DNA from: Moniliella sp. 'wahieum'
Taxonomy: Eukaryota
Direction: 5' to 3'
Assembly (NCBI GenBank): GCA_003971905.1
Contig: RSEE01000012.1
Span: 372,001 to 436,000, forward strand
Length of the DNA: 64,000 nucleotides
The first letter of the stretch is position 1, and each line of letters opens with the position of its first letter. The position numbers and the translations under genes were made by a program. Of the stretch, positions 5,320-62,891 are shown in pieces. Below the pieces are notes generated by a model. The model was not told the origin of the DNA and searched no databases. It saw only the letters and a program-made list of their open reading frames with translations.

Positions 5320-8300
5320 ATGCACGCAGCCGGTGAGTTTGGGTGCTTGCGTCGCTATCATCTGCCAGTGCGCCAGACGCCGCTCCATCGCAGCCCCATC
5401 CAGCGCATCCAGCACATCCGGCGCATCCAGCACATCCAGCACTTCCAACCCATACAGCCCATCCATCCCTCGGCCATCATTCTTCCCCCCCACCACCATT
5501 CTCCCACCCCCCCGCCCCTGCCCGGCTCTGCTCAGGCCTGGCGCCGCCCCTCAGGACCCATGGCCCAGAGCCTGCACCCCCTCCCCGCACCCCCCGCTGG
5601 CCAAGCCCCGCCAGGCAGGCAGGCAGGCAGGTGCGACGGGCCTGGCCATTGCACTCCCTCCCTTAGCGGCGCGTCCACGTCGATGGCTACTGTCGCGTCT
5701 CCTGCCCCGGTGCGTGCGGCAACTGCACCCCCCCAGAAGAACAAGAAGCGACGCGTTTTGATGGCATGCATACGCTGCTCAAGCAAGAAGACCAAGTGTG
5801 ACGGCAACAAGCCCTGCAATGCTTGCATTGCTCTTTCCATCGCAGATGAGTGCCAGTTCAACCCCAACCCCAAGAAGCGTGGGCCTCCCAAGGGCTATTG
5901 GGCCGCCCAGCGCAAATTGCGCCAGGATGCTGCGGCCCGCACACGGACAAGCACGTCGAATGCGACTCGTCTTAGGCCTTCCACTTCTATGCTGGTGCCC
6001 CAGCCTTCCACCGTCAGCAGCGTACACGCGCGGCCCACGCCAAGCGTTGCCGTCAATGCGCAACCCATCGGTGTGCCACCCGTACCAAATCAAGGCACCT
6101 CATGGGCGCGGTTTGTTGAACCTACGGGGTCTGGGCTTTCCGGCCCTTCTCTTCCATACCGCAATAGTTCAAGGGGTCTGGAACAGAATCCAAACACCAT
6201 CGACGGGTCGACACCACCCGGCCTATCTCATTACCAACACTGGCCGCGTCTCCCGTCCTTGGCCCACATGCAAGACTCCGTCGACGCTCCTTTGTCTTCC
6301 ACAGAGGAGCCTGTCTCGATGGCTGCGGAGACGCCCAGGAACCTGTTTGGGCTCAACCCGCCCCCCTCAGCGGTAACAGATGGGGCAAGAAAAGATCCCG
6401 GCTTGACCCCGTTGCAGGCTCGATTGGTGGAGATCTACATTGCCTTTGTTCATGACCACTGGCCTTTACTGGCTCCCAACACTCTCTTTGCTCCTGGATT
6501 AGGAGGTGATGGAGCAGATCAGGATATCACCCCTGGTTCCGATCCCGCTGTGGCTTCCAAGTTGGGGGGTGAGCGCCCCAAGACGTTATCGGCCTACATC
6601 GCTTCGCTCAAGGTTAAGGTGCCACTTCTGTTCCAGATCATTTGCTGTGTGGCCATGTGCACCTTGACAGAAGATGAATCTACTGGGGGTGGAGGCGGTG
6701 CTAAGGGCAGGAATATCATCGCTGATATTCCCCGACTCCCGGGGGAGGTCCCTACGGGAGCCGAGCTGGCTGCGCTGGTAGAAAAATGCCGGGTGGCGCT
6801 GCGTCCATACGCGCACATTCGGGCTGTGTGGGGTACAAGCTCTGTTCCTGCTCGCCCTGGCCGACTACTCGGCGGGGCGCACGCAAGAAGGATGGCAATC
6901 TACGGGCCTTGTGTGCCAACTCATCTTTGATATGAACCTGCACAGGCGCCAGGGCGAAGCCGCTGTCGAGCGCATGATGCGCTTGGCTGCCGCCAGCGAT
7001 GCCCCTCCCACCGCTACGTCTTCCCTCCACCGGCGACCCCCTCCGGCCAGCTCAGTCAACTTGACCACCCAACAGGCCAATGCCAAGCATCGCCCCACCG
7101 GGTTCATGCAATCCATGCTGGCTGACATTGCCTCTGAGGAGCAAGACACTGCAGAGGATGAGCGAGCGATGTATGCGGTCGCTGGGGCCTTCACCGTCGA
7201 TGAGATTATCCAAGTGCGGCGCAGGGTCTTCTGGTGCTCCTTTGTTCTGTAAGTTTGCCACTCTCCCTACTCAACCCGGACGCTGACACTCTTTCGCAAT
7301 GCTCCAGGGACAAGTTCGTGTCGGTCGCTTCGGAACGGCCTTGTATGCTGCGAAGTGCCGAGGTGGACGTAGGCTTCCCTGTGCCCAATGGGCTGGACGA
7401 TACGCAGCCATGGCTTACCAGCAGTAGCGCCATGTTTGTGCAGCCCAACGTGATACCGGAGCTCAAGGGTGTACCGGCATGCCTGGATTCATTTTTCGTA
7501 GTCCTATCCCAACTCTGTGTCGTTACCGAGCACATTCTCGATGCCTTTTACTCTCCCGCACGCCGAGCTCTCAGCAGGCTGCCGGATCTGGGCCGGGACG
7601 ATCGCTCGGTATGCGCCAAGACATCCAGCGAATTGGGAGAAGTCGGCCCATCGCATCAGCGCGACGAAGGAACAGCGTTGGCATCCCGGTGGTTTTCCGA
7701 TTCGTTGACTTTGGGGGGGTCGAGCGGAGGTACAAATAAGGTGCTCTACCGTCCTGATCCCCAAAAGGCGCTCGCAGAGAACTACCCCGTATCCTGCGCA
7801 TGCTCACCCTCTGGTCGGAATATGTGCCGGCTCCCATGCGCACTCGGTCCACACCATTCACATACGCCCAACCACCCCGACCGGCCGTCAGTCCCATTGG
7901 CCCGATCAGCCTGAAGGCCATGCCCCCTGGCACAAGGGCTCCCCGCCCAGCTTCCTAACCATGCGAGCCTGGTCCCACCTACATGTTTTGTTGCTCCACC
8001 GACCCTTCATTGCTCATCCGCATCTGCTTCATTTTGACCTGGAGACGCTGCGAAAATATGGATTCGCACCATCGATGCCACCTGACCAGGCTGGCGCTCC
8101 AGTTGGGTCCGCAGCCGCATCTACTCCTTCGCCTCAGCCCAGTATCCCCACTCCTGCTGTGCAGCCTTGCCCTCCGTTGGAGGACGGCGAAGGGTTATGT
8201 GCTTCCCGGAGGGACAAGCCAGCCCAGGTGAAGGACAGCATGACAAGTTTAATTGGGGAACAATGCCGTCTTGGGACCGAGAAATCCAATCGGCCTGGCA

Positions 8301-16016: not shown

Positions 16017-19000
16017 ATGATGGCGGCAGACCAACCAGCATGTGACCTTGGGGGTGGACGCTTGCCGGTTAGGCCGGTTACCGCTTACCTGAGCTTGGCT
16101 GCTCTGGCCTGCTCAGGCAATCGGCTCGCACCCTCTCTGGCGCACTTGTCTCGGCCTTTGCTCGCGACGCAGCCAGAACGGCAGCCCCGGCACGCACCCC
16201 CCCCCCACCACCGCCACCCTCGCCCCCCCATCCCGCTCGGTCCAGAGCATGTCCCGTCCCCCCGCCCACCTGGCGAGTGCTCTATGCAGGGCCAATGCGG
16301 CAAAGCCAGCCTATTTGGACCCGAGCTACCCTGCGCCGTCGACCACGCAGCACCCAACCAGGTACATCTCGTCTCGCCTGTGTCCCCCGTTTTCTCTTGT
16401 ACTGACTCGCCCCGTCTGAGCAGCCTGATGCATCATTCCGTTCCCTCTTGGGAATGTCTGCGGTGCCGACTTCGCCTCGGGCCCCGTCTGCTGCAACGAG
16501 GGCCAGGTGGAAGTGCTGGCCTCCCAGCTGGACCAGGCTGCGCCCCTTATCTCCTCCTGCCCCGCTTGTCTCAACAACTTTCGTCACTTTTGGTGCTCCT
16601 TCACTTGCTCTCCTAACCAGAGCCAGTTCCTCGACGTTACCCAGACTCAGAGCACGGGCGACGAGCAAGCTCGTGCGGTCAAGGAGGTCGATTACTACGT
16701 GTCTGACTCGTTTCGTACCGGATTTTATGACAGCTGCAAGAACGTTCAGTTTGGTGCGACCAATGGGTTTGCCATGGACCTTATCGGTGGCGGTGCCAAG
16801 ACGGCTGATGAATTTCTCAAGTATATGGGTGACGAGCGGCCGCTGCTGGGGTCTCCCTTCCAGATCAACTTCCCGCACCTGGCCGATTTCAGTGTGCCTA
16901 CGCTAGCGAGCAACGCGTCCTCGCCCCCTCCTCTTCCTATGAACGACCCGGTGCGCAATTGCGCCAGTGGATCGCTTGACTCGCGCTGTGCCTGCGTTGA
17001 CTGCCCAGACGTATGTACGGCGCTTCCCGAGGTGCCGCCGCCAGATCATCACGAAAAGTGCAAGTTGTTTGGATGGGAATGTCTGCAGCTTTCGTTGATG
17101 GTGTTCTACCTCTTGGCTGTCGTGTCCTTTTTGTTGGGCTACCAGTGGAAGCGGATCAAAACTCAATGGCGTAAGCGTTCTCGCCGCGCTGAGCGCGACA
17201 GTCAGGTGGGCATCCCCAGCGATTCCGAGTTTGAGCATGTTCGTCTCGCAGGTGATGACAGTAGCAGCACGCCGAGCGAGGGCCCTTCCTCCACTGATGA
17301 TGGCCGTTCTTTTGGCCTGATGCGCTTTGCTGGGGAGGGGAACCTGAATGCGTTGCGCGCGACGCAGCCCAGGTCTTACGCCATTAACCGCTGGCTATCT
17401 GACAAGATGTACGCTTTGGGCTTGTCTTGTGCCAAGAAGCCATGGGCCACGTTTGCTCTGGCCTCCATCTTGCTCGGCGTGGCCAACCTTGGCTGGGCCA
17501 AGTTCCAAGTCGAAACGGACCCCGTCCGCCTATGGGTCGCGCCCAATTCGCTGGCCAAACGGCAAAAGGACTTTTTCGACCAGGAATTTGGCCCCTTTTA
17601 CAAGACGGAACAGCTTTTTGTGACCGACAAGGAAGCCAAAGGCTTTCACCGCCTCCCCGATCCGATGGAGCACGACAATGCTGTGGAGGACTTCCCTCCC
17701 GTGTTGGACTGGGACCGATTGCAGTGGTGGGCCGATGTCGAGGCTGAGATCCGATCCCTCCAAGCTGGACCCAACCAGACCCGCTTCCAAGATGTATGCT
17801 TTTCTCCCACTGGGCCTGGCGGGGCATGTGTGGTGCAGAGCATCATGGGTTACTTTGGGGACAATCTCGAGGCTGCTGGGGTAACCGAAGACAATTGGCG
17901 CCAACGCCTGACGGCATGCACCCAGCATCCAGCCGAATGTCTTCCAGCGTTTGGCCAGCCTCTCAAGTCCAACTTGGTCTTGGGCGGGATCCCGACAGAT
18001 GCAACTGTAACCGAGGCACGTGCTTTGGTCGGAACATGGGTGGTGGCCAACAGTTTGAACAGCACCGTGCTCAAGCGGGCGAGACATGGGAGAAGCGCCT
18101 CGAGTCCTTCTTGCTGGAACTGTCCGGCAGGGCTGTGTCGAAAGAGGGGAAGCCACACCCCTTGGCAGTACGTGCTAAGGAGCTGGACCTCAACGTCGCT
18201 TGGAGCACGGGCGTGAGCCTGGAGGAGGAAATTGCGTCCAGCAGCAATACTGACACGGGCATTGTGGCGCTGAGCTATGTGTTGATGCTTTTATATGCTG
18301 CTTTGACCCTGGGGGCGCGGCACCGATCAAGTCGAGGCTCTTGACTGCTGGATCGAGCGGACACCTGCCTCCCGGTCGGCATGTACGCACTGGGTTTGCG
18401 CGCGACTTGCGTACGGTTTTTGCTCAGATCGGTCGTCAGCAGGGTTCTATCCGTCTGCCCGATGACGATGACGATGCGTTGGAGTATTCTGCTCGGAGTA
18501 GGGCGCGCAAGGCCTTGAAGGCACGATTGATTTACCGGTTTTTTGTCCGGTCCAAGTTTATGCTCGGCCTGTTCGGCATCTTAATCGTCCTGGCCGCCAT
18601 CTCGTCAGCTGTTGGTATCTGGTCTTTCGTGGGCGTACGCGTGACGCTGGTGATCGCAGAGGTCATCCCCTTTCTCGTTTTGGCAGTCGGGGTAGACAAC
18701 GTCTTCCTTTTAAGCAACGAGATGGACCGGCAAAGCACATTGGCCAGTACTAGCAACCCATACTACGGCGTCGACCGTACCGAGACAGGCTCCAACTGGC
18801 AAGGCCACTTTGACGACGACGACGAGGATCATTTGAGTCTTGCGGACCAAGGCTCCCCGGATGCTGATCTGGACGCGTCGGGCTATGGGCAAGACGCGTC
18901 GGGCGCGGCGGATCAGTCCGCTTTCCATCTGACGGCGCAAGAACGAGCAGCGCGCGCGCTTGGCCGCATGGGACCCTCAATTGTCCTGAGTGCCAGTATC

Positions 19001-20802
19001 CAGATCACCGCATTTTTGCTAGGCTCCCTTGTGCCCATGCCGGCGGTGCGCAACTTTACTCTCTATGCTGCGGGAAGTATGATCATCGCTGTTTGTCTTC
19101 ATTGCACCGTGTTTGTCGCCGCGCTTGCGCTCGATGCTCAGCGCACTGAGGCAGGAAGAGTGGACTGTCTCCCCTGTGTGTCCGCCTTCCCTCAACAACG
19201 GGATGGGATCAACTCGCTCTCCATTAGTGCCAATCGGGGTTTGGTGCGGGAAAGCAAGTTGGCCGTGTTTATGCGGGAGCGCTACGCACCACTGATTGTA
19301 CGCAAGAATGTGAAGCGCCTCATCTTGGCGGCCTTTGTTCTGCTCGGAGGAGTATCGGTGAACTATGCAAGCAAGATCGAGATGGGGTTGGACCAGCGCT
19401 TGGCCCTACCCCCCAAATCTTATCTGCGCGAATACTTTGACGCGACCGATACCTGGCTCGACGTTGGGCCGCCGGTCTACTTTGTCGAATGGCGTGGGGA
19501 TGTCAAGTACAAGTTGGTGCAGCGTCAAATGTGTGCTCGCTTTACCACCTGTGCTCCCTTCTCGGTGGCCAACACGTTGGAAGGGGAGCGTAAACGACCC
19601 GAATCGTCCTTCCTCATTGAGCCCGCAGCGAGCTGGGTTGATGATTTCTTCCAGTGGCTCAACCCGTTGCTTGAGGGGTGCTGCCGGGTCCGAATCAACG
19701 ACCCTTCGACGTTTTGCACTGCGCGGGACTCGGATATGGCGTGCCGCCCTTGCTTTGAAGGAAGGGAGTACAACATTACGCTCCAGGGGCTGCCCGGGGG
19801 CCGAGTTTATGATGTTCCTTCGTCAGTGGCTCCAGAGCCCTGCGACTGCCGATTGCCCTCTCGGTGGCCAAGCAGCCTACTGTCGGTCTGAGTCTGAAGC
19901 GAAGCAATTTGACCGTCAAGGATCCATTGCTGGATATCCCCAAGAGAAGTCTTGTTGAGCTCGCTCCATGGCAAGGCCCTACCCCGAGCCGGGAAGATCG
20001 CAAAATGAACGTGTATGCCTCCCACTTCCGCACCTCGCACGTTCCCCTGCGCTCTCAGACGGACTTTATTGATGCGCTCCAGGCGGCCCATCGGATTGCG
20101 GAAGAGACGAGCCTACGGTCGGGCGTGCGCCTGTTCCCCTACTCGATGTTTTATGTCTTCTTTGACCAATACCTCCACCTGACCAAGTTGAGTTCAAGTA
20201 TTGGGGTTAGCTGCCTGCGCTATCTTTGGGATCAGCTTTGTTCTACTGGGTTGTTGGCGCACGGCGCTGGTAATTGTTGTCTGTGTGGCCTCCACCCTGG
20301 CTGGGGTGGCAGGGATGATGGGCTACGTTGGGATCCAATTCAACGCGCTCACCCTGGTCAATCTTTCTGTGTGTGCCGCGATTGCGGTCGAGTTTTGCGC
20401 GCACGTGGCCAAGGCGTTCATGCGTGCGCCAGGGGGGTTAGCACGCAACCATCCGCTGGCGCAGAAGGAGCGCGACGGGCGTGCCCTGGCCGCATTGGGC
20501 GACGTGGGGGCCTCGGTGCTGAGCGGGATCACGGGGACCAAGTTGGTGGGTATCTCGGTGCTGTGGTTTACACAGTCGGAGCTGCTCAAGCTGTATTATG
20601 CGCAGATGTGGATGGCGCTGATTCTGCTCGGTGCGCTGCATGGCCTGGTTCTGCTCCCGGTGCTTCTGTCTTTTATGGCGGCCGTGGCTATGCCAGCGTG
20701 GAGGATGAAAGCGAAGTTCGTCGTCGCCTGCTGCGCGCTCAAGAAAGCAACGAGTATCGCCCCTTTACCGACGATGAGGAGGAGAGCGACGAGGAGGCCT
20801 AA
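16017..20802 (+). CDS. NCR1: Niemann-Pick C1-like sterol transporter (Patched/RND family); start approximate
   Basis: NTD GECSMQGQCGKASLFGPELPC, CPACLNNFRHFWCSFTCSPNQSQF; ETDPVRLWV; FGPFYKTEQ; sterol-sensing domain EVIPFLVLAVGVDNVF; GLDQRLALP; VGPPVYFV; FPYSMFYVFFDQY; VEFCAH; GALHGL. Confidence 0.96.
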
Positions 20803-24028: not shown

Positions 24029-24828
24029 CTACTTGCCACGATGCCGCTTGAACGCCTCGGCGATGGAAACCCCCTGCTTCAAGTCGGCCGCTACCCGCGC
24101 GTCCACTTCCCGACCCTTGCTCGCCAGCGCAAGCACCTCCTCTGCCAACGACGGCGGCACCACCACCACCCCATCCAGATCGGCCAGGACAAAGTCTCCC
24201 GGTTGACCGTCGTGGCAGGGAAGAGCGGGTTGAGTGACTCCTCCCCCGTAGCGGCGGGGGTCTGGCTCGGGTCCACAATGCGCAACGGCACGTTCAGGGC
24301 CGATGGTCGGGTAAATGGCGATTGACCCAGCGTTGAATGGCCACGGGCAAAGACCTGAAGCAAGCCTAATGTCAGTCCCGAACAGAGCAGAGAAGAAAAC
24401 AAAGGAAACAAGCGTACATTGAACCCAGCCTCGCGGTGCTCGGCCAAGTCACGGCAGCGCCCATCAATCACCACCGCTTTGGCGCCCAGAGCTTGCGCAC
24501 GGTTGGTCATCAGCCCGCCCCAGGACGCGGAGCGGGTGTTGGGCGGGGTCTGGATCACAACAATGCTACCCGGAGGGATGGCATCGGCAAAGTGCACATT
24601 CGGCTTGGGCGCAGCAGTGTTGGTACCAGCGACCATGGAAACGGTGTAGGCCCGGCCACACACCGTCTCTGCTCCTGGCTGCGCTGGGGCGACAGGCGAA
24701 TAGCGATCAATGCCCGGCAGGTGGCCGCCCGACGGCACCTTGAGCTTGACCAGCGCGTCGGATACTTCGCATGTGCTGAACTGGGCCAGCGCCGCCTCGA
24801 CAGCACTGGGGCCGGTGGCGGTGGTCAT
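24029..24828 (-). CDS. RraA-like / 4-hydroxy-4-methyl-2-oxoglutarate aldolase family protein (YER010C-like), one intron
   Basis: FSTCEVSDAL, CGRAYTV, ASWGGLMTNRAQALGAKAVVIDGRCRDLAEH, PGDFVLADLDGVVVVP, DLKQGVSIAEAFKRHRGK*. Confidence 0.92.
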
Positions 24829-25819
24829 GGTTGTGCTGCTGAGGTGACGGGCGGTGTGGGCGATGCGCTGGAGAGGGTCGACATGCGCCCGAATGCGATG
24901 GAGGCGTGGCGCAGGCCCACTTTCAGCCAGCCAGCGCTTGGCCAGCCCGCCCTTGGATCCAACCGGTATCCCCGTCCGGCGCCGGCGGAGGAGCGGGGGC
25001 GACGCGTGACGGGGGGATGATCGCTGATATATGATATCTGATCGCTGCTGGCTGCGGGCGGACGCCCTGCGGACATGGCGGATGCAACTTGCAACCCCAC
25101 GCGTGGTCTGGCGTCGTCGTCGTTCTGAGGCTGAGGTGCGCAGCAGCGGGGACAAGACACGTGGGGGCGGGGTTGAAATTGCAGACGCGTGGGGGCCATC
25201 GCCATTCACCGATCACCGGCCACCATTCGCCCGCTCATGCATCATGACAATTGCTTTCCTTCGGCTCGTTACCAACGACGCTCCTGCTGTTCCCGCCGCA
25301 TTCCCTAATCCGATGATCTGTGCGCCTGTTCAGACTCCCTGCTGCCCATGCCCGCCATAAACCAAAAAGCCATTCATAAAACGATAAAAGCAGACGCAAT
25401 ACAGAGCCCTGGGAAGCCAGGATGAAGGTTGCAAGAGAACAAGAGGCGCCTGATGGAAGGTCGGCGAGGGTATCGAAAGGCAAGTTAGGCCTCCGCAAGC
25501 ATGCTGGACCTGATGCGGCAGGCGGGATAATGAGAAGAAGGTATTCCTCCCATTCAACGCGAGAAAGGGTGTGGCAACGGCTTGGGTGTAGCGGCCAGCA
25601 ATGAAGAGGGGAGGGAGGAGACGCGGGCCGAGAGGGATGTGGAAACATATATGAACGATAAACGGTAAATGGGGAATGTCGGCGCCTGCGCGCCGGGCGA
25701 CAAAAAGAACAAGGAAAGAAGCAATTGCGGTGACGCGCCCTCAGTGGCGAGGGCCTTTTGGTGGTGGAATCGGGCTTGCATGTTTTGGGGGTGGGGCAGG
25801 ACTGGGGGACAGCATTCAC

Positions 25820-33197: not shown

Positions 33198-33500
33198 GTG
33201 ACCTAGTGACCTAGTGACCGGTGACCGGCGCGCACGGCAGCGCATCTCTACACCGGCCCCGTGCACACTTTCCCCACGCAGCATGGCGCCACTGCGCGCC
33301 AGCGCAAACCCTAGGGGATGTGCTGCTGGGGCTGCGGTCCGCTGCTGCGTGGCTCTGCTACGGATTGCGAGCCACTGGTCACTAGTCACTGACTACTCAC
33401 GCGTCACAAGTCGCGAGTCACTAGTCACTAGCTAGTCACTAGTCACTAGTTCACTGCGGTCGCGTGCCTAGCCACGCGTCACGCGTCACGCGTCACTACT
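33198..33500. repeat. Low-complexity arrays of CTAGTCA/GTGACC and CACGCGT units
   Basis: gtgacctagtgacctagtgaccggtgaccgg; cactagtcactagctagtcactagtcactag; cacgcgtcacgcgtcacgcgtcac. Confidence 0.75.
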
Positions 33501-33786: not shown

Positions 33787-33826
33787 CAGGCAGGCAGACA
33801 GGCAGGCAGGCAGGCAGGCAGGCAGA
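33787..33826 (+). repeat. (CAGG)n tetranucleotide microsatellite immediately 3' of HIS4
   Basis: caggcaggcagacaggcaggcaggcaggcaggcaggcaga. Confidence 0.85.
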
Positions 33827-33829
33827 CGT

Positions 33830-36800
33830 CTACGCCCGCGAAGCTAGCGCCGCCAGACGCACCCGCACCGCCTGGGCGTGCGCCTCCAGCCCCTCACACT
33901 CGGCCAAGTGCACCACATGCGGACCGAGTCCCTGCAGACCCTGGCCGTCAGGCTCTGGGACGTAATGTGCTTCTCGAACGTCGACGTCGACACCACTGTA
34001 TTGACGTGCAAATCCATACGTCGGCAGGGTGTGGTTCGTGCCCGACGCATAGTCACCACAGCTGCTAACGTGTCAGTACACATCCCCTTAGCTTCATCCC
34101 ACACGCGTCGAAACAAAAACTTACCTCTCCGGGCTCCAGGCACCCACAAAGACAGATCCCGCGTTCGTCACGTCCGCCACCAGTGCCTCCGCATCTTCAA
34201 CTTGCAGAATCAAGTGCTCCGGAGCATATGCGTTCGACCAGGCAATCGCCTCTTTCCGGTCCTTGACCACCACCGTCACCGACTTGGAAATCGCCACCCG
34301 CACCGTGTCCACACGAGGGAGACGGTGCGCCTGCGCATCCAGTTCGTCGTCAATCGCCTTCAGCTCAGCGTCTGTCAAGTCAATCGCAACCAGCACCACC
34401 ATGCTGTCAACACCGTGCTCCGCTTGGCTCAGCAGGTCACTCGCCACAAACGCCGGGTTGGCCTGCTTGTCCGCAATCACCAGCACTCCGAAGGGCCCGC
34501 CGGCATGTCGATCCCACCAGGGCCGACGAGTCGTTCGACACGATCATCTTGGCGGCCGTGACAAACTGATTGCCCGGACCCGCAATCTTGTCCACCTTGG
34601 GCACCGTCTCCGTCCCATACGCCATCGCAGCCACAGCTGGGCACCACCAGCAGCAACAATGCAAGTCGCCTTGAGCAGCGACGCCACATACAGCACCTCC
34701 GGCACAATGCTCCCGTCCGGCCGAGGAGGCGTGGCCAAGACCAGCGTGTTGCACCAGCCACAAGCGCGGGCACACCCAGCATCAGCGCCGTCGACGGCAA
34801 CCGCCGTCCCGCCGGGCACATACAGTCCCACCCGTTCCACTGGACGAGCAAACCGGCGGCACACCACCCCAGGCTGGGTCCACCTCAAGCACAGCCTCTT
34901 GGACGGCCTTCGTAGAGAGAGAGGCAGTCGTAGCGACGGGCTTGTTCCCCGTGCTTTTCTGTGCCGCGTGGAAAGAGTATTGCGGAATGCCACATCGATG
35001 GCCTCCTTGACCTCGGGTTTGATCAGCGACATGACTTTGTCCGTCACGTAGGGGGCCGTGACGACCGGGGTGGAGAGGGAGGTGCAGCGATCCAACTTGG
35101 CCGTGTACTCTAGCAAGGCCTTGTCGCCACCCTGACGCACGTTGGCAAGGATGGCTTCACAATCTCTTGGATCTCGGCACTCTTGATAGCAGGGCGCTGC
35201 AGAAGGCGTTTCCTCTCGGCGTCCGAGAGAGAAGCAGCACGGTAGGTTGTCAAGTGGATACGATCGTTGGGATCAGCGCGAGCGGCGGCGGCTTGTTTCC
35301 GCGCAAGTGAGCCAGACGCACCCGTACCGCCTGAGCATGGGCTTCCAGCCCCTCACACTCGGCCAAGTGCACCACATGCGGACCGAGTCCTTGCAGACCC
35401 TCGGCCGTCAGGCTCTGGGACGTATGTGCTTCTCGAATGTCGACGTCGACACACCACTGTATTGACGTGCAAATCCATACGTGGCAGGGTGTGGTTCGTG
35501 CCCGACGCATAGTCACCACAGCTGCTAACGTGTCAGTACACATCCCCTTAGCTTCATCCCACACGCGTCGAAACAAAAACTTACCTCTCCGGGCTCCAGG
35601 CACCCACAAAGACAGATCCGCGTTCGTCACGTCCGCCACCAGTGCCTCCGCATCTTCAACTTGCAGAATCAAGTGCTCCGGAGCATATGCGTTCGACCAG
35701 GCAATCGCCTCTTTCCGGTCCTTGACCACCACCGTCACCGACTTGGAAATCGCCACCCGCACCGTGTCCACACGAGGGAGACGGTGCGCCTGCGCATCCA
35801 GTTCGTCGTCAATCGCCTTCAGCTCAGCGTCTGTCAAGTCAATCGCAACCAGCACCACCATGCTGTCAACACCGTGCTCCGCTTGGCTCAGCAGGTCACT
35901 CGCCACAAACGCCGGGTTGGCCTGCTTGTCCGCAATCACCAGCACTCCGAAGGGCCCGCCGGCATGTCGATCCCCACCAGGGCCGACGAGTCGTTCGACA
36001 CGATCATCTTGGCGGCCGTGACAAACTGATTGCCCGGACCCGCAATCTTGTCCACCTTGGGCACCGTCTCCGTCCCATACGCCATCGCAGCCACAGCTTG
36101 GGCACCACCAGCAGCAACAATGCAAGTCGCCTTGAGCAGCGACGCCACATACAGCACCTCCGGCACAATGCTCCCGTCCGGCCGAGGAGGCGTGGCCAAG
36201 ACCAGCGTGTTGCACCAGCCACAAGCGCGGGCACACCCAGCATCAGCGCCGTCGACGGCAACACCGCCGTCCCGCCGGGCACATACAGTCCCACCCGTTC
36301 CACTGGACGAGCAAACCGGCGGCACACCACCCCAGGCTGGGTCTCCACCTCGAGCACAGCCTCTTCGACCGCGTTTGCCGTGGGAGCGCCGGTGGTGCGG
36401 CGGCGGCGGCCAAACCGGGCTTGTTGCCGTCCGTCTTCTTTTGGGCAGCGTGGAACGAGTAAATGTTACGGAAGGCAACGTCGATCGCCTCTTTGACCTC
36501 GGGCTTGATCTGCGACATGACCTGGTCGTTGACATAGGGTGCCGTGACCACGGGCGAAGAGAGGGCGGTGCACTTATCAAATTTGGCAGTGTACTCCAAC
36601 AGTGCCTTGTCCCCGCGCGTGCGAACGTCTTCAATGATAGGGCGAGCAATGTCTTGGATTTCGCTCGTTTTGATTGCCGGCCGCTGGAGCAACTCTTTCT
36701 TCTCTTCAGGAGAAAGGGCTGCGGCACGGTAGGTAGTGAGAGCAATGGTCCTTGGTCGCCGACGTAGTAGCCGGAGCCGGTGTTGTGCCTGTCGCACTCG

Positions 36801-38000
36801 ACAAGTAGGCCGGTTTGGCATTGCCAGGGCGGCGCTGGACCTTCTTCGCCTTGCCATCAAGTGCGCGTTCCACATCCTCCAGCGTCACGCCCGCCTTGAC
36901 ACAACGGACCATGGCAAAGTAGAGCAAATCGGCCATTTCGAAGGCAACATGGTCCTTGTCGCTGTCCTCCGCATCGATGAGCTCCTGAGCTTCTTCCCGT
37001 AGCTTGGCGGAAAGGAGCTGCTGGTCGGAAAACAGGCGGGCCGTGTAGCTGCCTGCCGGTGCGTTAGCCTTGCGCTCAACAATCGTGTCCTGCAACTTCT
37101 CCAGGCCCGTCTTGAACCCAAAGCAGCTGCTCCGTACAGGCAAGTGACAGAACCCTCGCCGTTGTGACCGGGATGCTGTTCCACCCGCATTTCAACGCAT
37201 CCAGGTCGCAATCGAGGCGAATGCACCGCACGGTTTGGGTAGCGCCACTGGTCAGGCCCTTGTGCCACAAGCCACGCGTGCGACTCTGGTAGATCCCATT
37301 GCCAGACAACAGACTGGCCCGGAGCGATTCGGACGACGAGTAGACCAAGCCCAAACACTGCCCACTGGCACTAGTAACCACCGTCGCATACAATCCATCC
37401 GGCCGGTCAGTCTTGAGCGGACCCAAGAACAGGTCGGCAAAGTCCATCACCCCGGGCTCAGTAGAGCGAGTGGACGAGAAGCTGAGGTTGGACAGGGAGG
37501 CGACGGCTGTACCACCGAGGTGGACTAGGTTTTTTACCGCCTCCACGTCAGGGGACTGGTAGGGATACCCACAATGCCCGTCCGGTCTTGCTCGGCTCGA
37601 GGTGGCGGACGAGCGCCTTGACATGGTCACGGCAATCGGGCGCAGTGGAGGCGTAAAAAATGCCAGCAAGGGCAGGGGCCGCTTGGAGAGCCGGTTCGAC
37701 CAGCGCCGGGTCATCGACGGCGAAAATGATGCGCTCAGCAGGCAGGACGGCCAGAAGAGCAAGATCCGGAGTGATGATGGCATCGGCGCCATTGTTGAGG
37801 ATGTTGGACGCCTCACTGGCATCGGATTCGGAAACAAAGACCACATAGGGCTGCGACAGGGGCAAGCGGCCGTCGACCAAGTGCGAGGGTTCCACCAGCA
37901 GCGGCGCAGCACGGCTAAGGATGGCGGCTGTAGCTGCGTCGGGCAGGTGCGCCGCGATGGCCGAGGGCACTACGGGTACGCCGAGCGGAAATGAGCTCAT
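33830..38000 (-). CDS. HIS4: Trifunctional histidine biosynthesis protein (PR-AMP cyclohydrolase / PR-ATP pyrophosphohydrolase / histidinol dehydrogenase) with a tandem-duplicated HisD domain
   Basis: His[46 protein letters not shown]. His[32 protein letters not shown]. HisD, twice: [83 protein letters not shown]. Confidence 0.97.
33885..36365. repeat. Direct repeat of about 1 kb (33885-34900 vs 35344-36365), the HisD core including a 63-nt intron
   Basis: Near base-for-base identity on visual comparison; introns at 34062-34124 and 35522-35584 are identical. Confidence 0.95.
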
Positions 38001-38763: not shown

Positions 38764-39649
38764 TCACAAGTCTGAATGAGAACCCTTTTTGGCACTCTTA
38801 GGCTTGCCCTTGGTGGCCTTAACTTTCTTGGGCTGAGAGCCCACTTTGGCCACTTCCGGCGACACTTCTTTCAGCCAGGAGAGAATGTTTTGAACTTAAG
38901 CAACCATCGTACACCTTGAAAGCAGACGCATCGCCAGGCGGGATGTAGAGCAGCTTGGCGCCCGAGCTGGCGTCCAAGTCCAGGTCAAGTGTCTTGCGGG
39001 CCGCCTCACGGACATCTTCGTGATCACTCCGGGCAGTAGCAAAGAAACAGCATCCTTAAAGTCGAGCGCCAAAGACTTTACAGGGGTGTCGAGGATGGCT
39101 TGGACGTAAAGAGAAGAACCTTGCCCTTGTCCTGCATAGAATAGGGTTAATACTCAAACGGCGAGTAAGGGGGGGAGGTCACGTACCTTGCTATCCACGA
39201 ATGACGCCAACTGGGAAGCAGATAGCTTCTTTACATTGGACAAGGGAAGCTCCGAAGTGGCATACTCAATCATGGCCTTAGCGGTGCGCTCGCCGCGGTA
39301 GTCCTTGGGGAGACGCTTCTTGGTGGGCGGGAACATCTTGATGGTCGGGAAGCCGGTTACACCGTACTTTTGGCACACTGCTGCATTGCGCTGGTCGTCG
39401 CAATCTACATTGACAAACTTGATAATGCCATCGAGGGAGCGGCTGGCCCGCTCGTATTCGGGCGACAGGTTGCGGCAGTGGCCACACCAAGGCGCAGTAA
39501 AGGCAACAAAGGTGGGCTTCGAGAGCGACAGGACTTCGTCGTCAAAGGTTTTGGCATCAGCGCTAACCACAGGAGAGTTGGAGGAAAAGAGAGCCGCTGA
39601 CACGGTCTGGCCCAAGGCCAGAAGCACAAGAAGGCCCGGGAAGAAGCAT
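38764..39649 (-). CDS. Protein disulfide isomerase family thioredoxin (Mpd1/P5-like), ER lumen
   Basis: Signal peptide MLLPG-LLVLLALGQTVSA (one indel); FTAPWCGHC; YGVTGFPTIK; DYRGERTA; C-terminal ...KKGSHSDL*. Confidence 0.9.
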
Positions 39650-40636
39650 GGGCACGAGCAGACTGGTGGTGGCGGAGAAGGTGGGAGTGGGGAAAATGCG
39701 TCCCAGGCTATTTGCCGTTCCACGTGGAGCTGGATCGGAGGCTCTGGCTGCATGAGGGTGGTGCTAGGGTTCCGCCGCACTCTCCTCAATTAATGGGCGA
39801 CCGGTGACTAGTCCGGTAACCGGTGACGTGCAACGCCTTCGTTGGCTCCGAATTGATTCCTTGCTCTGTCTCTTTCCCTTCAGCTTGCTTGAAGAGCGTG
39901 TGGCTAGCCGCCCTGCCGTCTCGTACGCCTTGGAAAATCTCTCGTGCTGCCCATAGCGTTCCATAGCGGCACATGAGCGCGGGCTTCCATGCAATCCAGA
40001 GCCTCTGAAACCTGGGAACGTGAACACCGTGAAGTGTACAACCAGCAGTGAGAGCTGGCGGACAACGACGGAATCTCCTCGTCAAAGCCTGCTTTCCGTC
40101 GGGCTTTTCCTTTCAGGAAAGTCCAGATATAAACATGTACTAAAGACGCAGGAAATGCAAGGATATGGGTGGAGAACATCTGGAAATGTAGAGCAATGCA
40201 ATCGCAGTGGGGGTGGTTGAGAAGCCTCAACCTCAGTTAGCCGGGTCTATAAGCCTTCTGCCACACCTACCAGCACAGGAGACATGGTTCGAACAAGCAG
40301 AGAGTATACGTGGAGGAGGCTTTAGACGTCAAAGAAGGGGGAACGGATGATAAGGCGCCTTGACCATTTTGTACGGGACCGCGGGTCCCGACAAAATACA
40401 TCCATGTCATCGCTACATCTGTGTTGGGCGTAGTAAGGGAACCTGAATACTGAAATGGTGGCAAAATGCAGAGGTAAGAGCGCGATCACGGTAAGGGTCA
40501 TTGAATTCACAGAGTGAGCTCGATTAGTATAGTCAGAGAACCCCAATGTGGGTCCCTCTAAAACAAGGAGGCAAATTATGTGGCGAAAGCAGTAAGTTGC
40601 CTTGCCCGACTACTAAGTAACGTGTACGAATGGAAA

Positions 40637-42470
40637 TCAAATGCTGGCTTGTTCTCGCAAAAAACGGGCTTTACGCCATTCGGGTCCTCGCACTTGGAGG
40701 ACCAATCCAGCAGGGCACGCGATGAAAGCGATGCAGGCAGCAATCGTGTAGCACTTGCCTGGGCCCACACTCTTGTAAATGTAAGGGACGACAGAGACAA
40801 GTACGGCTGCCATCCAGCAACGGGCGAGATTGAGGCAGGATGTGCCGCCAGCCCCTCGCCCCGGCAATAGTCCACCAGCAATGTCGAGCCAACCGTGACA
40901 AGCGCGCCAAAAGATGCGCCGTTCAGAAAGAGCATGACCAGTGGGCCAGCGGGTAAACCTTCTTCTCCACCATCCATCCATACGCAATTGTCGATGCGAG
41001 GATAATGAACACACATGGAAACAAAAATACAAGCCGGGCCCGCTCGAGGGGAAACGTGGCCAGGTCCGCTGCGTTCATCTTGGCCTTTGGCGCTTTTTCC
41101 TCGCCACTCCCAGATTTCTGAGCCAGTTTGCGCTGGAGGCGGCGGATGTTCATATCAGCACTTTTCCCGAGAAGAAGGAAGCGCACATCTGTCAAGGTAA
41201 AGTCAGTTGTTGATCGTACCCAAAGGGAATAGTGAAAAAAACGTACTGTTCCCGACCCTTGGCACAAGAATACCAGTCCTACTTCCATCACACTCCAATG
41301 GTAGATGTCCTGCCAGCATCCAGACATAGTGGTGAGGACCATAAACACGGATGCGTAAGGGAACGCAGCAATGCAGAGGCACAGGATCACCTCTGGCATA
41401 ACCATGTACTTGAGCGGAGCGAATGATACGTTCTCTTGAAACCGAGCCCAAAGCAGCCGTTCCGCCTCTGCTTGGGGTCCAGGTCTCCCACTCCTGCTTG
41501 TCAATGGTTGGGGGCAAGGGAAGTCCTGGTCGAGGCTGGCCAGTGCGTTGCGTAACAGTAGATTTGGTTAATAGGCTGAAGAACGCTTCGTGGAACACGG
41601 TGGGTGCCGGTTTGGATCCATTGCCGACGAGCTTGCGTAGCGTCTCTTGGAGAAAGAAGAAGACACCCACAGTGCATACGGCTGAATAGATGAACAGGAA
41701 CATGAAGGTGGCCCGCCAACCAAAGCCAGTGGTTATGGCTGCGCCAATCAAGGGAGCGAGGGCGGTGCCGACGAGAGCCGAAGCCTGGAACACGCCCATC
41801 ACGCCCGCCCGATCGGCCGGAGTGGTGATATCCTGCACGGCGCCCTGTTCATAAAAGAAGAAGAACGAGTTAATACAGCAGAAGTGCGTCGAAGAAACAA
41901 AGAGGGGAGGGAAAGTACGCACAGCACCGATGCTAATGGTGCTGGCAGAGCCAACGGCTTGGAAGCAGCGCAGAACCATGAGCCCCACATATCCACCCGA
42001 TCCATTGGGCAGGACAAAGATATGATGTTGACAATGAGGTAAAGAATCTGGAGAGAATGATGACGGGCGACGACCCACTTTGTCCGTGTTGGCACCGACA
42101 ATCATGGGGCTGATGCCTTGCATGATGAGAAATACGGTCACTGTGAGCTGCACATTCTCCGTGCTGGCGTGGAGGTCACGCGAGATGGTTGGGAGGGCGG
42201 GCATGTAGATGCTGCCTGTCATGGGGGAGATGATGCCGATAGCGACAAGGAGCAGCAAAAACAAGCGCGACGCGGGCCGCGAAAGGGTATAAGGCTCTTC
42301 GTCAGTGGGAAATGGGGGTTTGGAGGGGGGTCGGCGCTGCCCGATGGCCGCTTCTCAGGGCTGTCGGCTGGGGAGCATGGCGTAGTGGCTGGGCCAGGCG
42401 ATGCGGGGGGGCTGGCAAGCAGCTTGGGCACGCCCTGATAGGCGGGAGCAGGATCATCTGGGGGCGACAT
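40637..42470 (-). CDS. MFS multidrug transporter, DHA1 family; introns and frameshifts
   Basis: SIYMPALPTISRDL, motif A DKVGRRP, LRCFQAVG, DITTPADRAGVMG, APLIGA..GFGWRATF, FPLERARL, TLLVD, NLARC. Confidence 0.92.
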
Positions 42471-55608: not shown

Positions 55609-57564
55609 TCAAGCTTCGGCCAGCCCGGCGGCGTCCGTCTGGGTGGCCAGGTGCCGCCCACACACGTACAGCGCATCCTCCATCCCAAACCACACCAGCC
55701 CCCTGCTCCTCCTGCCCCGCCCACCCGTCGCAGCCCGCAAACGCCCGGATTGGCGCGGCCAGCGGGGCAAACGAAACCTGCACCCCTCCTCCATCCGTCT
55801 GCCCCCTTCCTCCCCCTCCACCCAGCCCGCACGCAGCGTCACCGCTCGCTGTCCAAACGGACGACAGTCCCGTGCGCCTGTTACAAGGGGGTGTAAACGT
55901 TGCCCAACGGCTCAGGTCCGCCCCTCCTCCTTTCCCCACCAATCTCTCCCGTACCGCACCCGCCGTCGGCAGCGCTTCCTCGTGGCTGTACTCCCATGCC
56001 TCGGTCGGCGGCACAAACACGGGTGGGAGCCAGCAGTGCCAAACGGCGCCCCGCACCCCGACGCGCTGCGACGGTTCAAATGTAAGTTTGGAACAATGTG
56101 GCCCCCGTCGTGGTGGCTGCAACATCAATGTGCACACGCACACGGGACGGTATCACCGCCTCGGCTGGGCCAGGCGCTAGGTGAGCACAAGGGTGCGCTG
56201 GTCGTGCTGGGAGAGAAGCAGGGGAGTGAACGAGGCGGTGCAAGGTCGCTACGGCCTCCTCCTGGGTAGTTGCGCTGCGACGCGCCGAGCGAGACGAGGC
56301 TGATGCCGCTCAAGCCGGCCAAGAGGCCGAAAAAGGGCAAGACGACGGAACACAAACCCGATCCTTTGGTCGAGCAAAGGCGTGGCTTGTCCTTGTCCAC
56401 CAGAACTGGGGGCGAGCGAGCCCAGCTACATCAAAGCCATCTGTAGTCATAGTGTCGGTCGACAGGATTGCTACCATAGACGTAGTGGTGGTGGTGGGGG
56501 GGGAGGGGGGGTGAAATGACGTACAGTGACTCAAGCGCTCGTGCAGCAAGCAGATTCCACACGGGAACAGTGTAGACAATGAAGCGCCATTCCTTGTGAG
56601 CCACAAGGGATAGCAGCCCGACGTGGAAGGCAGCGGTGAACACAAGCCAACCATAGGCGAATCGATGCAGGCACGCACTTGCTCCGACCAGCTCCGGTGG
56701 CCCGGACCACATCCCGCAGTACCAGCACCCCACCCCACCGGCACAAGGGGCAGGGCAAACGTCAGCAGGCGCGGCAGTGCGTTGGTCGCATACCAATGCA
56801 TAGGCATGACTCCCCATGCTTTGCTCTGACCATGAAGAATGTTGAAGACGACAGCTTCCCATTCGGGAAGAAAGAGGCCGAACGGTAACGTGGGCGCGTG
56901 CAGCCCGGCCCAAGCGGGACGATCATACAGTGTACCGTATGCCACGGCGCCAAGGCCGGCACCAAGTCCAGTCCAGATGACAGAGACGAGCGAAAGGTGG
57001 CGGCTGAGCACCACCCACGCCGTGGCTGGGGCCAGAAGACCAACGAGCTCCGAGCGAAGCAACGCAGCGCAAAAGGTCAAGACCCCGATCCCAACTGCGC
57101 GTGGCTGGCACGGCGATCGAGAAAAATGAGGCGAAACGACAAAGCACAGGCCAACACAATCGAGTTGTGCGTCGTACGCCCAGCCCAGAGAGAAAATGAA
57201 ACTGGGCAGCGGTGAGGAGCAGGACCCACAAGCCAAAGCGAACTCCCCGGCACAGGTAGACCAATCCGCCGAGTTGAGCAAGGCCAAGGTGAAGCGTACC
57301 GCGAGCTCGACGTGAGCACTGGATGGGGCAAACAAACTGGCAGGAAGACTGGCTAGCGCAAGCGCACGTACGCCGCAAATGAGTGCGGTACCGGGTCGGG
57401 GAACTGGCGAAAGTCCCAGGCCGCGCGCGGGGAGCGACCAGCACGTCGTGGACGGCGTGCAGCACAAAGCGCTCCTCGATCTTCGTGTAGGGCACCAACG
57501 CCACATGAGCGCAGCAACCAAGAACAGGAGCGCGGACGCAGCACCCAGCTGCGTGGCTGGCCAT
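55609..57564 (-). CDS. ALG12: Dol-P-Man-dependent alpha-1,6-mannosyltransferase (GT22)
   Basis: PYTKIEERFVLHAVHD, AAQFHFL, LRSEL, PEWEAVVFNILHGQSKAWGVMPMHWY..ALPRLL, HKEWRFIVY, NYPGG, VHIDVAATTTGATLF. Confidence 0.88.
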
Positions 57565-58011
57565 GTCGACGCCGGCGTGGGGTGGCCCAAATCAAGCGCC
57601 TCACAGCTAAGCGTTAAACGTTCGCCTCAACGTTAACGACGTTACGCGTTAACCCCAGTCTCTAGGCTTACTGCCTTGGTGACGTGGCCAATGTGGAGTT
57701 GGGCGGATGGACAATTTCAAAATGGCATTTCGCCAAGTCGATGGGAGGCGCGAAGGCGCCGACGTCAGTCTGACGTCAGTAGTGTAACCCTAGGTCAGCA
57801 CTGCCCTGCCAACTCGAAAAAGTGGAAAACCCGCCGCAGCTCGTAACCCTATTACCCTGCCCTGCCGCCTACCAACACGCTGAGCCACGCCGGGCAAACT
57901 CCACACCACGAAGCCCAGCTTAGCAGCAAGAGGTAAGTTGGACGGGCCGGCACGCACCCCTGCCGCGACCTCGCCTGGTTCTGACCTGCGCCTTGTATTT
58001 GCCAGAGTAAG

Positions 58012-60280: not shown

Positions 60281-60797
60281 ACAGGGATGATATCTAGACT
60301 GGCAATCCGACATGCTGTGGGATTCTACAACGATCCTTTGCGCATGGATACCGAGATAGACAAGAACCATTACGGGCAGCGAGGAGTAGCAAACGCGAAC
60401 CTAGACCTTCAATGGGGCGTGGGGAGGGAGGGGCATGGGGAATAGAGCAGGGGCAACGGAAAGCAGAGAGAAAGAGATATGGCAACCGGGGGTAGCCCCT
60501 TAATGGGGCTGAGACGGCCCCGTTCAACCGACTGGTCCCCGTCTTCGCACTGACCGAGAAACTGGCCACGCGAACGACAAGGCGCCAAGAAGGAGACCGT
60601 AAATGCAATCGTTCGGAACCGAGGGGCCGCAGAAACGGGTGGGAAGAAGGGAATGGGTGACATGGGGATCACCTAGATAGCGGAGGCCAACCGTAACCGG
60701 CAATCGTAGCCAATGATGCGTGGAGGGGAGGGGCAAAAGCATTCCAAGCAAGAAGATAACGAGAGGGGCAAGCTCGAGAACCAGCGCCACCGTTAGA

Positions 60798-62891
60798 TTA
60801 CGGGGCTTGGAACAGATGGGACGACGGCGACGGCGGCAGGGTTAGGGCAAACTTCTGGTGTAGCTTGTGTTCCCGGTTGCCCCGGTTGCGCAGCAAGGTC
60901 GCATTGTTCATATTGAGCTCGAAACCACCTTTCTTGGGCTTGGGTGCCGCTGCCAAGCCAGAGGGGATGACGGAACGGGCTTCCGCGTCGTGGAGGGCGC
61001 CCAACGGGCGTGGGCCGAGGAGAGGAGGATCGAAGCTCTTTCTCCCGTACTTGGCGCTGCTGTGCCAACACCTCTGTCACAACCGGCGGTAGGTTTTGTG
61101 TCTCGTCGTCCTCTTCTTCCTCGTTGAGCTGCATAAGGCCCTGTCCACTGTTGGCAAGAGTGTTGCGGTGGTAGGCCTCCTCTTCCATCCGATGCACCGC
61201 ATACGAGACATCGAATGCCTCTCGCAGCTGATGAACACCGGGCGTGGTCAAACCCATGCCAGCACGCGCCTGGCGGCTGGCAGCATTGTCGCCACGTAAT
61301 GCGTCGAGCAAAGGGGAGTCGAGGGGAGGAGTGCGGGCGACGGGCGGGGCCAGCAGGTGGGTGACAGTGGGAACGCTGGCAGGCAGCGGAGCGGGCTTGG
61401 AAGCGGCGCGGATCCAAGGGTGTGCGAGGAACTCGTCGATGGTGTAGCGCTTGCGCGGGTCGACAGTCAGCAAGTGAGAAATGAGGTCTTTGGACGAGTC
61501 GGAAATATCATCCCACCAGGGGGAGAGGAACGTGTATTGGCCCCGGGCCACCTTCTCGGTGAGGACCTGAATGCTTTCGTCGTAAAAGGGCGGGAAGCCA
61601 CAGAGGATGGTGTACAGCACACAGCCAAGTGCCCACATGTCGACACTCTGTTGTAGAACTGGTCTTTCACAATCTCGGGGGCCGTGTACCCTGCCGTGCC
61701 ACATGGTGTTTTGGTGGCCGACTCCCACACGATCTTGGACAAGCCAAAGTCGGCAATCTTGACTTTCCCAATACCACCACCCCCCACGCCGGGAATAAAC
61801 TCGCCCTCATCTTCTTTCTCCTCGTCGTACGGCCGAGCAACAGGGTGACGAGAAGGAACGAAGGGGATGGGCTCAAAAAGAATGTTTTCTGGCTTAATGT
61901 CGCGATGCACGACGCCAGCTTCTTCGTGCATGTACCGAATGGCCTCGGCCACCTGAATAATCACATGGCGGGCCAAATCTTCCGAAAAGTAGGTGAGTTT
62001 GGCAATTTGATGGAACAGCTCGCCGCCGCGGGCCAGTTCGAGAACCAAAAAGTAGTACTCATCCGACTCGCTAAACTCAAGGAGGCGGACGATATTGTCG
62101 TGATCGAGACCACGCATGATCTGCACTTCCTTGAGAATGTTGGCGCGCTGTGAAGAGAAAAAGTAAAAAAAAGGTTAGTTCCATCGAAGGAAGACAGAAA
62201 GACGGAAGAAAGAGACAACTAGTACACACTTCGGTTGCCTTGTTCTTCTTGCGGAACTTGGGATTGAGGCGGTCAGCGTTGAGCGGGTTGAGCTCATACT
62301 TGCGAACCACCTTGATAGCGCACTCCATGCCCGTCTCACGATGAGCCGCTTTGTAGACATTGCTAAACGCTCCGTCTCCCATCTTATCGAGCAACACATA
62401 GCGCTCAGTTAAACCCTTATAGTCGGGCATGCCGGCTTGGGACTTGGCCACACGCTCCTGGCGCTCCTGCTCCACCAGTTTCTCAGCCACATCGCGGTGC
62501 CGGTTACGGTGCTGTGTGTCGTGGGTAGGTGTGGAGGCGTACGCAGGAAGAGGAGACATGGCGTCCCCTTGGATGACAGGCGATGGGTTGAGCAGCAGGG
62601 CCTGATCGATTGAGGGCTGCGAGCCGCGGACGGCGGTCGTAGAAAGAGAGAGGTCAGGCTCGAGGTGCGGGGCCAGAGCAGGGGAGGCCGGTAGCGGCTT
62701 GGCCACCTCGACGTAATCGAGGCCGGCGTCGTGCTTTGAGGGGACGACGACGGTAGGCTGGGGAGGGGTCAGCACGATGAGCGTCGAGACGAGGGTGGGG
62801 CAGGCGGAATGAGGCGTACAGAAGCGGGGTAGGAGGGGTCTGCGGCTTTGCCGTGACGGATGAAGTTGCGGAACTGCTCGAGCATGGGCAT
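60798..62891 (-). CDS. CAMK-group MAPK-activated kinase, Rck2/Srk1 type; 2 introns
   Basis: MPMLEQFRNFIRHGK; KMGDGAFSNVYKA; AIKVVRK; GGELFHQI..LTYFSEDLARHVI; HRDIKPEN; DEGEFIPGVGGGGIG insert; ADFGLSK; FLSPWWDDIS; LREAFDVSYAVHRMEEE; FELNM. Confidence 0.95.

Follow-up and report, generated by a model that had tools for sequence, protein, structure and literature searches.

Textbooks present histidinol dehydrogenase (HDH, or HisD) as an obligate homodimer and HIS4 as a gene fusion. As far as the text of Fani et al. on fungal HIS4 goes, the gene consists of an N-terminal region, HisIE, a variable linker and one HisD, and in Aspergillus nidulans a further HisD gene stands apart from it (Fani et al. 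2007, PMC1963479). Here we describe a HIS4 locus in 64,000 nucleotides (nt) of Moniliella sp. 'wahieum' (GenBank assembly GCA_003971905.1, contig RSEE01000012.1, positions 372,001 to 436,000 of the forward strand). We call this whole stretch the window and use its coordinates throughout. The locus occupies 33830..38000 on the minus strand and carries two HisD modules, copy A and copy B, one directly behind the other. A single HisI-HisE-HisD-HisD chain of about 1,350 residues is our best reading of this arrangement, and we give it an even chance of being correct.

Two described systems bear on such a protein. The first is gene elongation, the tandem duplication and fusion of a coding module, which is treated as ancient in the histidine pathway and reported there for hisA/hisF, for hisB and, within hisD, for its pair of Rossmann-like halves (Del Duca et al. 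2020, PMC7284861). The HIS4 locus is like the process outlined in that text in having a coding module duplicated in tandem, no intergenic space, and modules that have partly diverged. It is unlike the hisD elongation covered there, an ancient event inside one monomer, in that the whole HisD module is repeated and this in one lineage, that the core appears still to be undergoing homogenisation, and that the single open reading frame (ORF) is one that we infer (PMC7284861).

The second is the HDH homodimer. The dimer of Medicago truncatula HDH, measuring about 90 x 70 x 50 Å, is described as having mutually swapped L-shaped domains III and IV, and a zinc site that is completed by a histidine of the partner subunit, with His302, Asp401 and the partner His460 as ligands (Ruszkowski and Dauter 2017, PMC5585171). 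Unlike the homodimers of that description, which are built from separate identical chains, the two modules reported here differ slightly and may share one chain through a putative linker of ~20-25 residues. Among the papers that our full-text search of the literature listed, none dealt with a repeated HisD module.

A HisD module present twice in HIS4

The locus extends from an ATG at 38000-37998 to the terminal TAG of copy B at 33832-33830, and its read-through length is ~1,350 codons once two introns of 63 nt are removed. All its parts lie on the minus strand. They were delimited with Pfam and with a custom protein-to-DNA aligner that allows frameshifts and introns, for which the His4 proteins P0001, P0148 and P0300 (Tilletiaria anomala) served as references. 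The closest relatives, at 810-924 aa, are His4 proteins from Ustilaginomycotina and from other fungi. As in the fungal HIS4 described in the text cited above (PMC1963479), the N-terminal region, PRA-CH, PRA-PH, a variable linker and Histidinol_dh follow one another in this order on one strand; unlike in that description, another complete HisD module comes directly after the first, without a spacer.

The N-terminal region, HisI and HisE together take up 36800..38000, as placed by Pfam and by frameshift-aware alignment to P0001 and P0148. The ~215 residues between the ATG and PRA-CH align weakly to the N-terminal regions of these two proteins. HisI (PRA-CH, PF01502) lies at about 37348-37187 (E 1.9e-14, in ORF 37076..37969) and HisE (PRA-PH, PF01503) at about 37104-36856 (E 1.7e-22, in ORF 36706..37191). 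An Ala/Thr/Pro-rich linker, located by frameshift-aware alignment at 36747..36799, connects HisE to HisD, and a frame break at about 36747 immediately precedes the residues matched to the D-R-I that relatives conserve.

Downstream of PRA-CH and PRA-PH, pieces of Histidinol_dh (PF00815) come twice. Copy A (35303..36746) matches profile positions 2-411 with its frames joined; its individual pieces cover positions 2-87, 137-222 and 218-329, with another matched stretch in ORF 35250..36242. Copy B (33830..35268) starts with a linker-like D-R-I-H-L-T-T-Y-R and ends at the terminal TAG, and its pieces cover positions 15-174, 218-340 and 340-411. Frameshift-aware alignments bridge the gaps between pieces, so that each copy has a full-length profile match. 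Both copies contain an intron at the same site and of identical sequence, at 35522..35584 in copy A (GTAAGT ... CTGAC ... CAG, phase 2) and at 34062..34124 in copy B. The copy A intron is placed by the frameshift-aware alignments and by the pairwise alignment of the copies, and the reference protein reads WSPESCGDY across its site. Two other introns proposed by the aligner with P0148 as reference, 36415-36349 and 34937-34884, were rejected as artefacts of an insert that P0148 lacks: copy B reads in one frame over 34937-34884, and P0001 and P0300 align through this stretch.

The repeated HisD unit measures about 1,460 base pairs (bp) and stands head to tail at a direct-repeat spacing of 1459-1465 bp. 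It starts inside the HisE-HisD linker and ends where the coding region ends. Between the copies, six blocks of 32-300 nt show 99-100% identity, a block of 91 nt near the 3' end shows 93% and one of 53 nt near the 5' end 75%. Pairwise alignment of A and B resolves three zones, namely a diverged first stretch of ~400 nt, a core nearly free of substitutions (35483..36343 in copy A, 34023..34880 in copy B) and a last stretch of ~170 nt with scattered third-position changes. The window contains no N, and no intergenic space separates the copies. A preliminary description of this stretch, made from the letters alone, had reported two HisD domains in tandem behind HisI-HisE; the repeat spacing and the Pfam content bear this out, and the peptide ends quoted there for both copies are correct.

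The same description held that both copies keep SQAEHG, APEHL, GDY and EGLEAH, which is what we find. SQAEHG, APEHL, GDYASG and EGLEAH, which we take to be the zinc and catalytic residue motifs alongside the zinc ligands named for the Medicago enzyme, each occur once per copy. Copies A and B are in this respect like M. truncatula HDH as described, keeping motifs that align with its zinc and catalytic residues (PMC5585171).

Frame breaks in the assembled locus

Neither HisD copy is an intact ORF as assembled. The first three profile pieces of copy A lie in three different ORFs, and the six motifs checked in it fall in three frames. We place three frame breaks in HisIE (at about 37559, 37197 and 37153), one in the HisE-HisD linker (at about 36747, noted above), six in copy A (about 36397-36428, 36215, 35943, 35620, 35480 and 35424) and ten in copy B (about 35150, 34977, 34880, 34801, 34754, 34635, 34513, 34484, 33991 and 33944). 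With a further break at the A/B junction, the whole locus has at least 20. A single missing base explains 13 of the 16 breaks inside the copies, mostly beside runs of two or three bases. The preliminary description had seen the junction offset alone and called both modules catalytically intact, a property that is not readable from the assembly.

The many frameshifts of the locus look like assembly errors. As a control we used an NPC1/NCR1-like gene on the plus strand (16774-20799), which lacks introns and, across all 1,350 residues, shows 82.6% identity to P0028, the nearest relative. This conserved gene still needs six frame breaks in 4,026 nt (18080, 18310, 19796, 19884, 20191 and 20670). 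A protein kinase domain (60793-62174, minus strand) likewise changes frame at about 61650 with no space for an intron; its profile positions 41-176 end at about 61647 in one ORF, and positions 175-263 start at about 61653 in an overlapping one. This is probably another assembly frameshift. Within the HIS4 locus, the cores of A and B differ by about 10 indels of 1-2 nt and by only two substitutions, the reverse of natural decay, and we read the breaks as errors on this ground as well.

Further sequence comes from the one public run listed as sharing words with the locus (a share of 0.10 of the sampled words), available as contigs and not recorded as RNA. Its contigs are small; some, with 3-10 mismatches in 209-258 nt (about 96-99% identity), belong to a close relative and others to more distant ones. 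At every one of the seven breaks that they cover, these contigs hold extra bases (34485, 34515, 34752, 34799, 34878, 35423 and 37557).

These observations bear directly on the possibility that the frameshifts are real and that the whole HIS4 is a decaying pseudogene in a histidine auxotroph. The sheer number of breaks would suit such decay, as would two breaks that are common to both copies (36215 = 34754 and 35943 = 34484). However, the conserved control gene and the kinase domain are broken in the same way, the balance of indels to substitutions in the core runs against natural decay, and the relatives' contigs supply the missing bases wherever they reach, including at 34754, one of the two shared breaks. 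The frame-corrected locus, moreover, has no in-frame stop codon that would have to be read through, and its residues stay close to those of relatives. We regard a pseudogene as barely credible.

Break density rises from 1.5 per kilobase in the control gene through 2.5 in HisIE and 4.2 in copy A to 7.0 in copy B. The copies hold 16 breaks in 2,883 nt against 6 in 4,026 nt of the control, so that 16 of 22 events fall in 41.7% of the length (binomial P = 0.003). This excess would fit a long-read assembly in which a repeated stretch is harder to polish. Given an assembly with such frequent frame-breaking indels, claims made from it at the level of ORFs need polishing first.

Divergence, selection and homogenisation of the two copies

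Substitutions between A and B are very unevenly spread: the first 96 codons hold 82 of them, the following 261 codons 2 and the final 53 codons 8. In the first zone (TTYR..FHAAQ) the differences amount to 49.5 over 69.5 synonymous and 32.5 over 218.5 non-synonymous sites, giving a pS of 0.71, which is saturated, and a pN of 0.149. The core (861 bp in A and 858 bp in B) has two synonymous and no non-synonymous differences, all else being indels of 1-2 nt. The last zone has seven synonymous differences and a single non-synonymous one, which adjoins a frame break.

Over the 96 residues of the first zone, A matches B at 77% of positions, whereas identity to 21 relatives is at most 66% for A and at most 62% for B (the nearest being P0298, P0300, P0001 and P0299). 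The copies have in common lineage-specific residues that the relatives lack, and derived changes are about evenly split between them in an alignment read by eye. On these comparisons, A and B are by all appearances sister paralogues that arose in this lineage, and the deficit of non-synonymous change shows what looks like purifying selection on both copies since the duplication. Selection on codons specific to copy B would in turn mean that this copy is, or until recently was, translated. The near identity of the core and of the intron points to recent gene conversion.

A contig of the public run extends part of this picture to another sample. It is 214 nt long, covers 34736-34944 at about 97% identity (6 mismatches in 209 nt) and reaches 64 nt into the part specific to copy B, where A and B are only 75% alike; a B-type module is therefore present in that sample too. 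A further contig, about 85% identical, matches 34128-34565 up to a point just ahead of the intron and continues with exon 2, which is matched on the other copy at about 35391-35461. Such a structure would suit a more distant relative with a HisD free of this intron.

The pattern of divergence is also what an artefactual tandem would have to explain, whether diverged HIS4 alleles, homeologues or loci had been joined end to end or a contig overlap had been left unmerged. An error-prone assembly invites this explanation. The breaks, three to four times denser in the copies than in the control, would suit a poorly resolved region, and the architecture has not turned up elsewhere among the matches listed below. 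An unmerged overlap, however, would leave copies that differ by errors only, and the errors of this assembly take the form of indels rather than synonymous substitutions; here there are 82 substitutions, mostly synonymous, in the first 96 codons alone. Alleles or homeologues would be expected to differ along the whole unit and not just at its ends. No N marks the join, and breakpoints that fall near the natural C-terminus of His4 and inside a linker would be an unlikely coincidence for contig ends. We consider an assembly artefact distinctly improbable.

Set against the T. anomala His4, conservation along the module is very uneven. The last ~50 residues of both copies (33830-34000 and 35300-35480, minus strand) are almost identical to its C-terminus, and identity drops to 57-63% over the first 100 HisD residues.

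The A/B junction and the case for one chain

The junction between the copies lies at 35250..35302. Frame A continues for 15 codons beyond ...RLAHLRG and then meets a TGA at 35252-35250, and the -1 frame, open from 35352, runs into copy B. The one-base offset given in the preliminary description is thus present. One base missing from the GCGGAAAC stretch would suffice to join the copies. In the frame of copy B no Met occurs from the upstream stop to the HisD domain, again as first described, and a promoter would find no space there. The 12-15 codons upstream of copy B resemble the linker or the tail of His4. Whereas the T. anomala His4 (P0300) ends in ...VRVRLQALQKRATA and copy B in ...RLAALASRA, copy A continues beyond this point. 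The start of the duplicated unit lies inside the inter-domain linker, and copy A ends only a few codons from where His4 naturally terminates.

With P0300 as reference, the aligner puts a one-base break at 35302 and the tail of copy A in the fused frame (RLAHLRKQAAA against RLQALQKRATA). This placement, which rests on an alignment, may be taken as weak support for the fused frame. Two other ways past the stop were looked for by eye and rejected. Between the end of HisD and the TGA, frame A has no slippery heptamer of the X XXY YYZ form for a programmed -1 ribosomal frameshift, and the junction offers no GT..AG pair of workable length for an intron that would remove the stop.

We propose that an old tandem duplication of the HisD-coding module took place inside the HIS4 of an Ustilaginomycotina-like basidiomycete, and that copy B may well be translated as an extension at the C-terminus of copy A. 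On this reading the single-base offset between the copies would be one more assembly error. The offset is of the single-base-deletion type, the commonest error here, and is therefore compatible with a missing base; at the local rate, the 54-80 nt of the junction would contain one or more such errors with a probability of 0.22-0.30. Because copy B lacks both an ATG and a spacer yet appears to be under selection, translation as an extension of copy A would be its simplest route to expression.

If the junction is instead correct as assembled, the duplication is real and HIS4 ends at the TGA, leaving copy B as a relic silenced only recently and held similar by gene conversion, or as a module expressed by another route, for example from an internal start that assembly errors conceal. 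The in-frame stop is there in the assembly, with copy B in the -1 frame; the relatives carry one HisD each; and a dead copy B could still look intact in its core, maintained there by gene conversion. Gene conversion does not reach the 96 codons specific to copy B outside the converted core, however, where pN is far below pS and copy B has gathered derived changes at about the pace of copy A. Such constraint is not to be expected of a copy that stayed untranslated while its synonymous sites reached saturation. The lack of an ATG upstream of the domain and of a promoter spacer speaks against separate expression, and all breaks specific to copy B are of the 1-2 nt kind seen in the control gene. 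We judge an unfused copy B unlikely.

Several observations weigh against a single fused chain. As assembled, copy A stops at the TGA and copy B follows in another frame, and the fusion requires one base that is absent from the assembled sequence. The junction offset does not discriminate between the readings, an unrelated frame giving it one time in three. The perfect identity of the core could in part reflect homogenisation by polishing. Among the contigs of the public run, none spans the junction or the A-specific 5' part, so that they attest B-type sequence and not the tandem arrangement. The preliminary description had spoken of two apparently fused modules in a single chain: the missing spacer and the apparent selection on copy B favour that view, and the TGA that ends copy A, with copy B out of frame, does not.

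Searches for the same architecture add to the points against a fused chain. No HisD-HisD protein was found among the best 150 of 12,288 representatives, where the four proteins above 1,200 aa have a single HisD apiece. Nor was one found among the best 120 of 1,929 His4-like matches, the longest of which has 1,133 aa. The nearest relatives P0298 and P0299 show one HisD, both being cut at the intron by gene calling that takes no account of introns; a second module in their genomes would be annotated as a shorter protein of its own, to which the search did not extend.

The domain content of these matches is uniform with respect to HisD. From the first set we scanned 12 proteins (the four above 1,200 aa, seven other HisD fusions and the ordinary His4 P0148), and a single HisD was found in 12 of 12. 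The 11 fusion proteins join HisD to a nucleoside transporter, a HisA/F-like domain, a HisC-like aminotransferase, HAD, IGPD or HisG. Combinations such as HisD-aminotransferase (HisC-like), HisD-HisC-IGPD, HisIE-HisD-HisC and HisZ/HisG-HisD are, like the protein proposed here, multi-domain proteins of the histidine pathway, with one Histidinol_dh each; none repeats HisD. In the second set, the five longest of the best 120 (1,009-1,133 aa) have one HisD each, and all eight proteins scanned have a single Histidinol_dh. The Histidinol_dh domain search in related His4 proteins that the preliminary description had proposed as a check therefore gives one HisD in every protein scanned. Its author had not recognised the architecture from other fungi; this agrees with the absence of HisD-HisD among the relatives searched, which covers best matches only. 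The HisD-HisD architecture does look unusual among the matches listed. A metagenome scan with a core peptide returned 11 loci, all distant, the best 59% identical, and these were set aside.

A possible linked HisD pair

Under the single-chain reading, both modules would be expected to catalyse the two-step oxidation of histidinol to histidine that depends on nicotinamide adenine dinucleotide (NAD). The HisD modules of one chain could pair together or with those of other chains. By analogy with the swapped homodimer, one natural HisI-HisE-HisD-HisD chain might form the swapped HisD dimer intramolecularly, with no need to pair with a second chain and with the module ends specialising. We put this forward tentatively, as a possibility that we hold to be somewhat doubtful. 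In such a protein, gene conversion would keep the catalytic cores identical, and the N-terminal 100 residues and the tails could specialise as parts of a 'first' and a 'second' subunit.

If the fusion holds, the locus would be a case in which gene elongation has recently repeated a whole module within HIS4 and the cores evolve in concert. It would be a living example of a process that, in the histidine pathway as treated in the text cited above, is otherwise inferred only for very old events (PMC7284861), and a clear case of concerted evolution within one gene. It would also permit direct tests of what covalent linkage of the subunits does to a domain-swapped dimer, in its assembly, its stability and the balance of activities in a multifunctional enzyme.

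Sequence surroundings of HIS4

Directly after the HIS4 stop comes a (CAGG)n microsatellite at 33787-33825; ~400 bp beyond it, at 33373-33455, there is an imperfect (CACTAGT)n array. Pfam identifies five neighbouring genes in the window: a Zn2Cys6 transcription factor (5137-7252, plus strand) and, on the minus strand, an RraA-like aldolase (24091-25212), a thioredoxin/PDI-like protein (39154-39789), an MFS transporter (41203-42354) and an Alg9-like mannosyltransferase (56310-57626). These five genes look ordinary, and none belongs to the histidine pathway.

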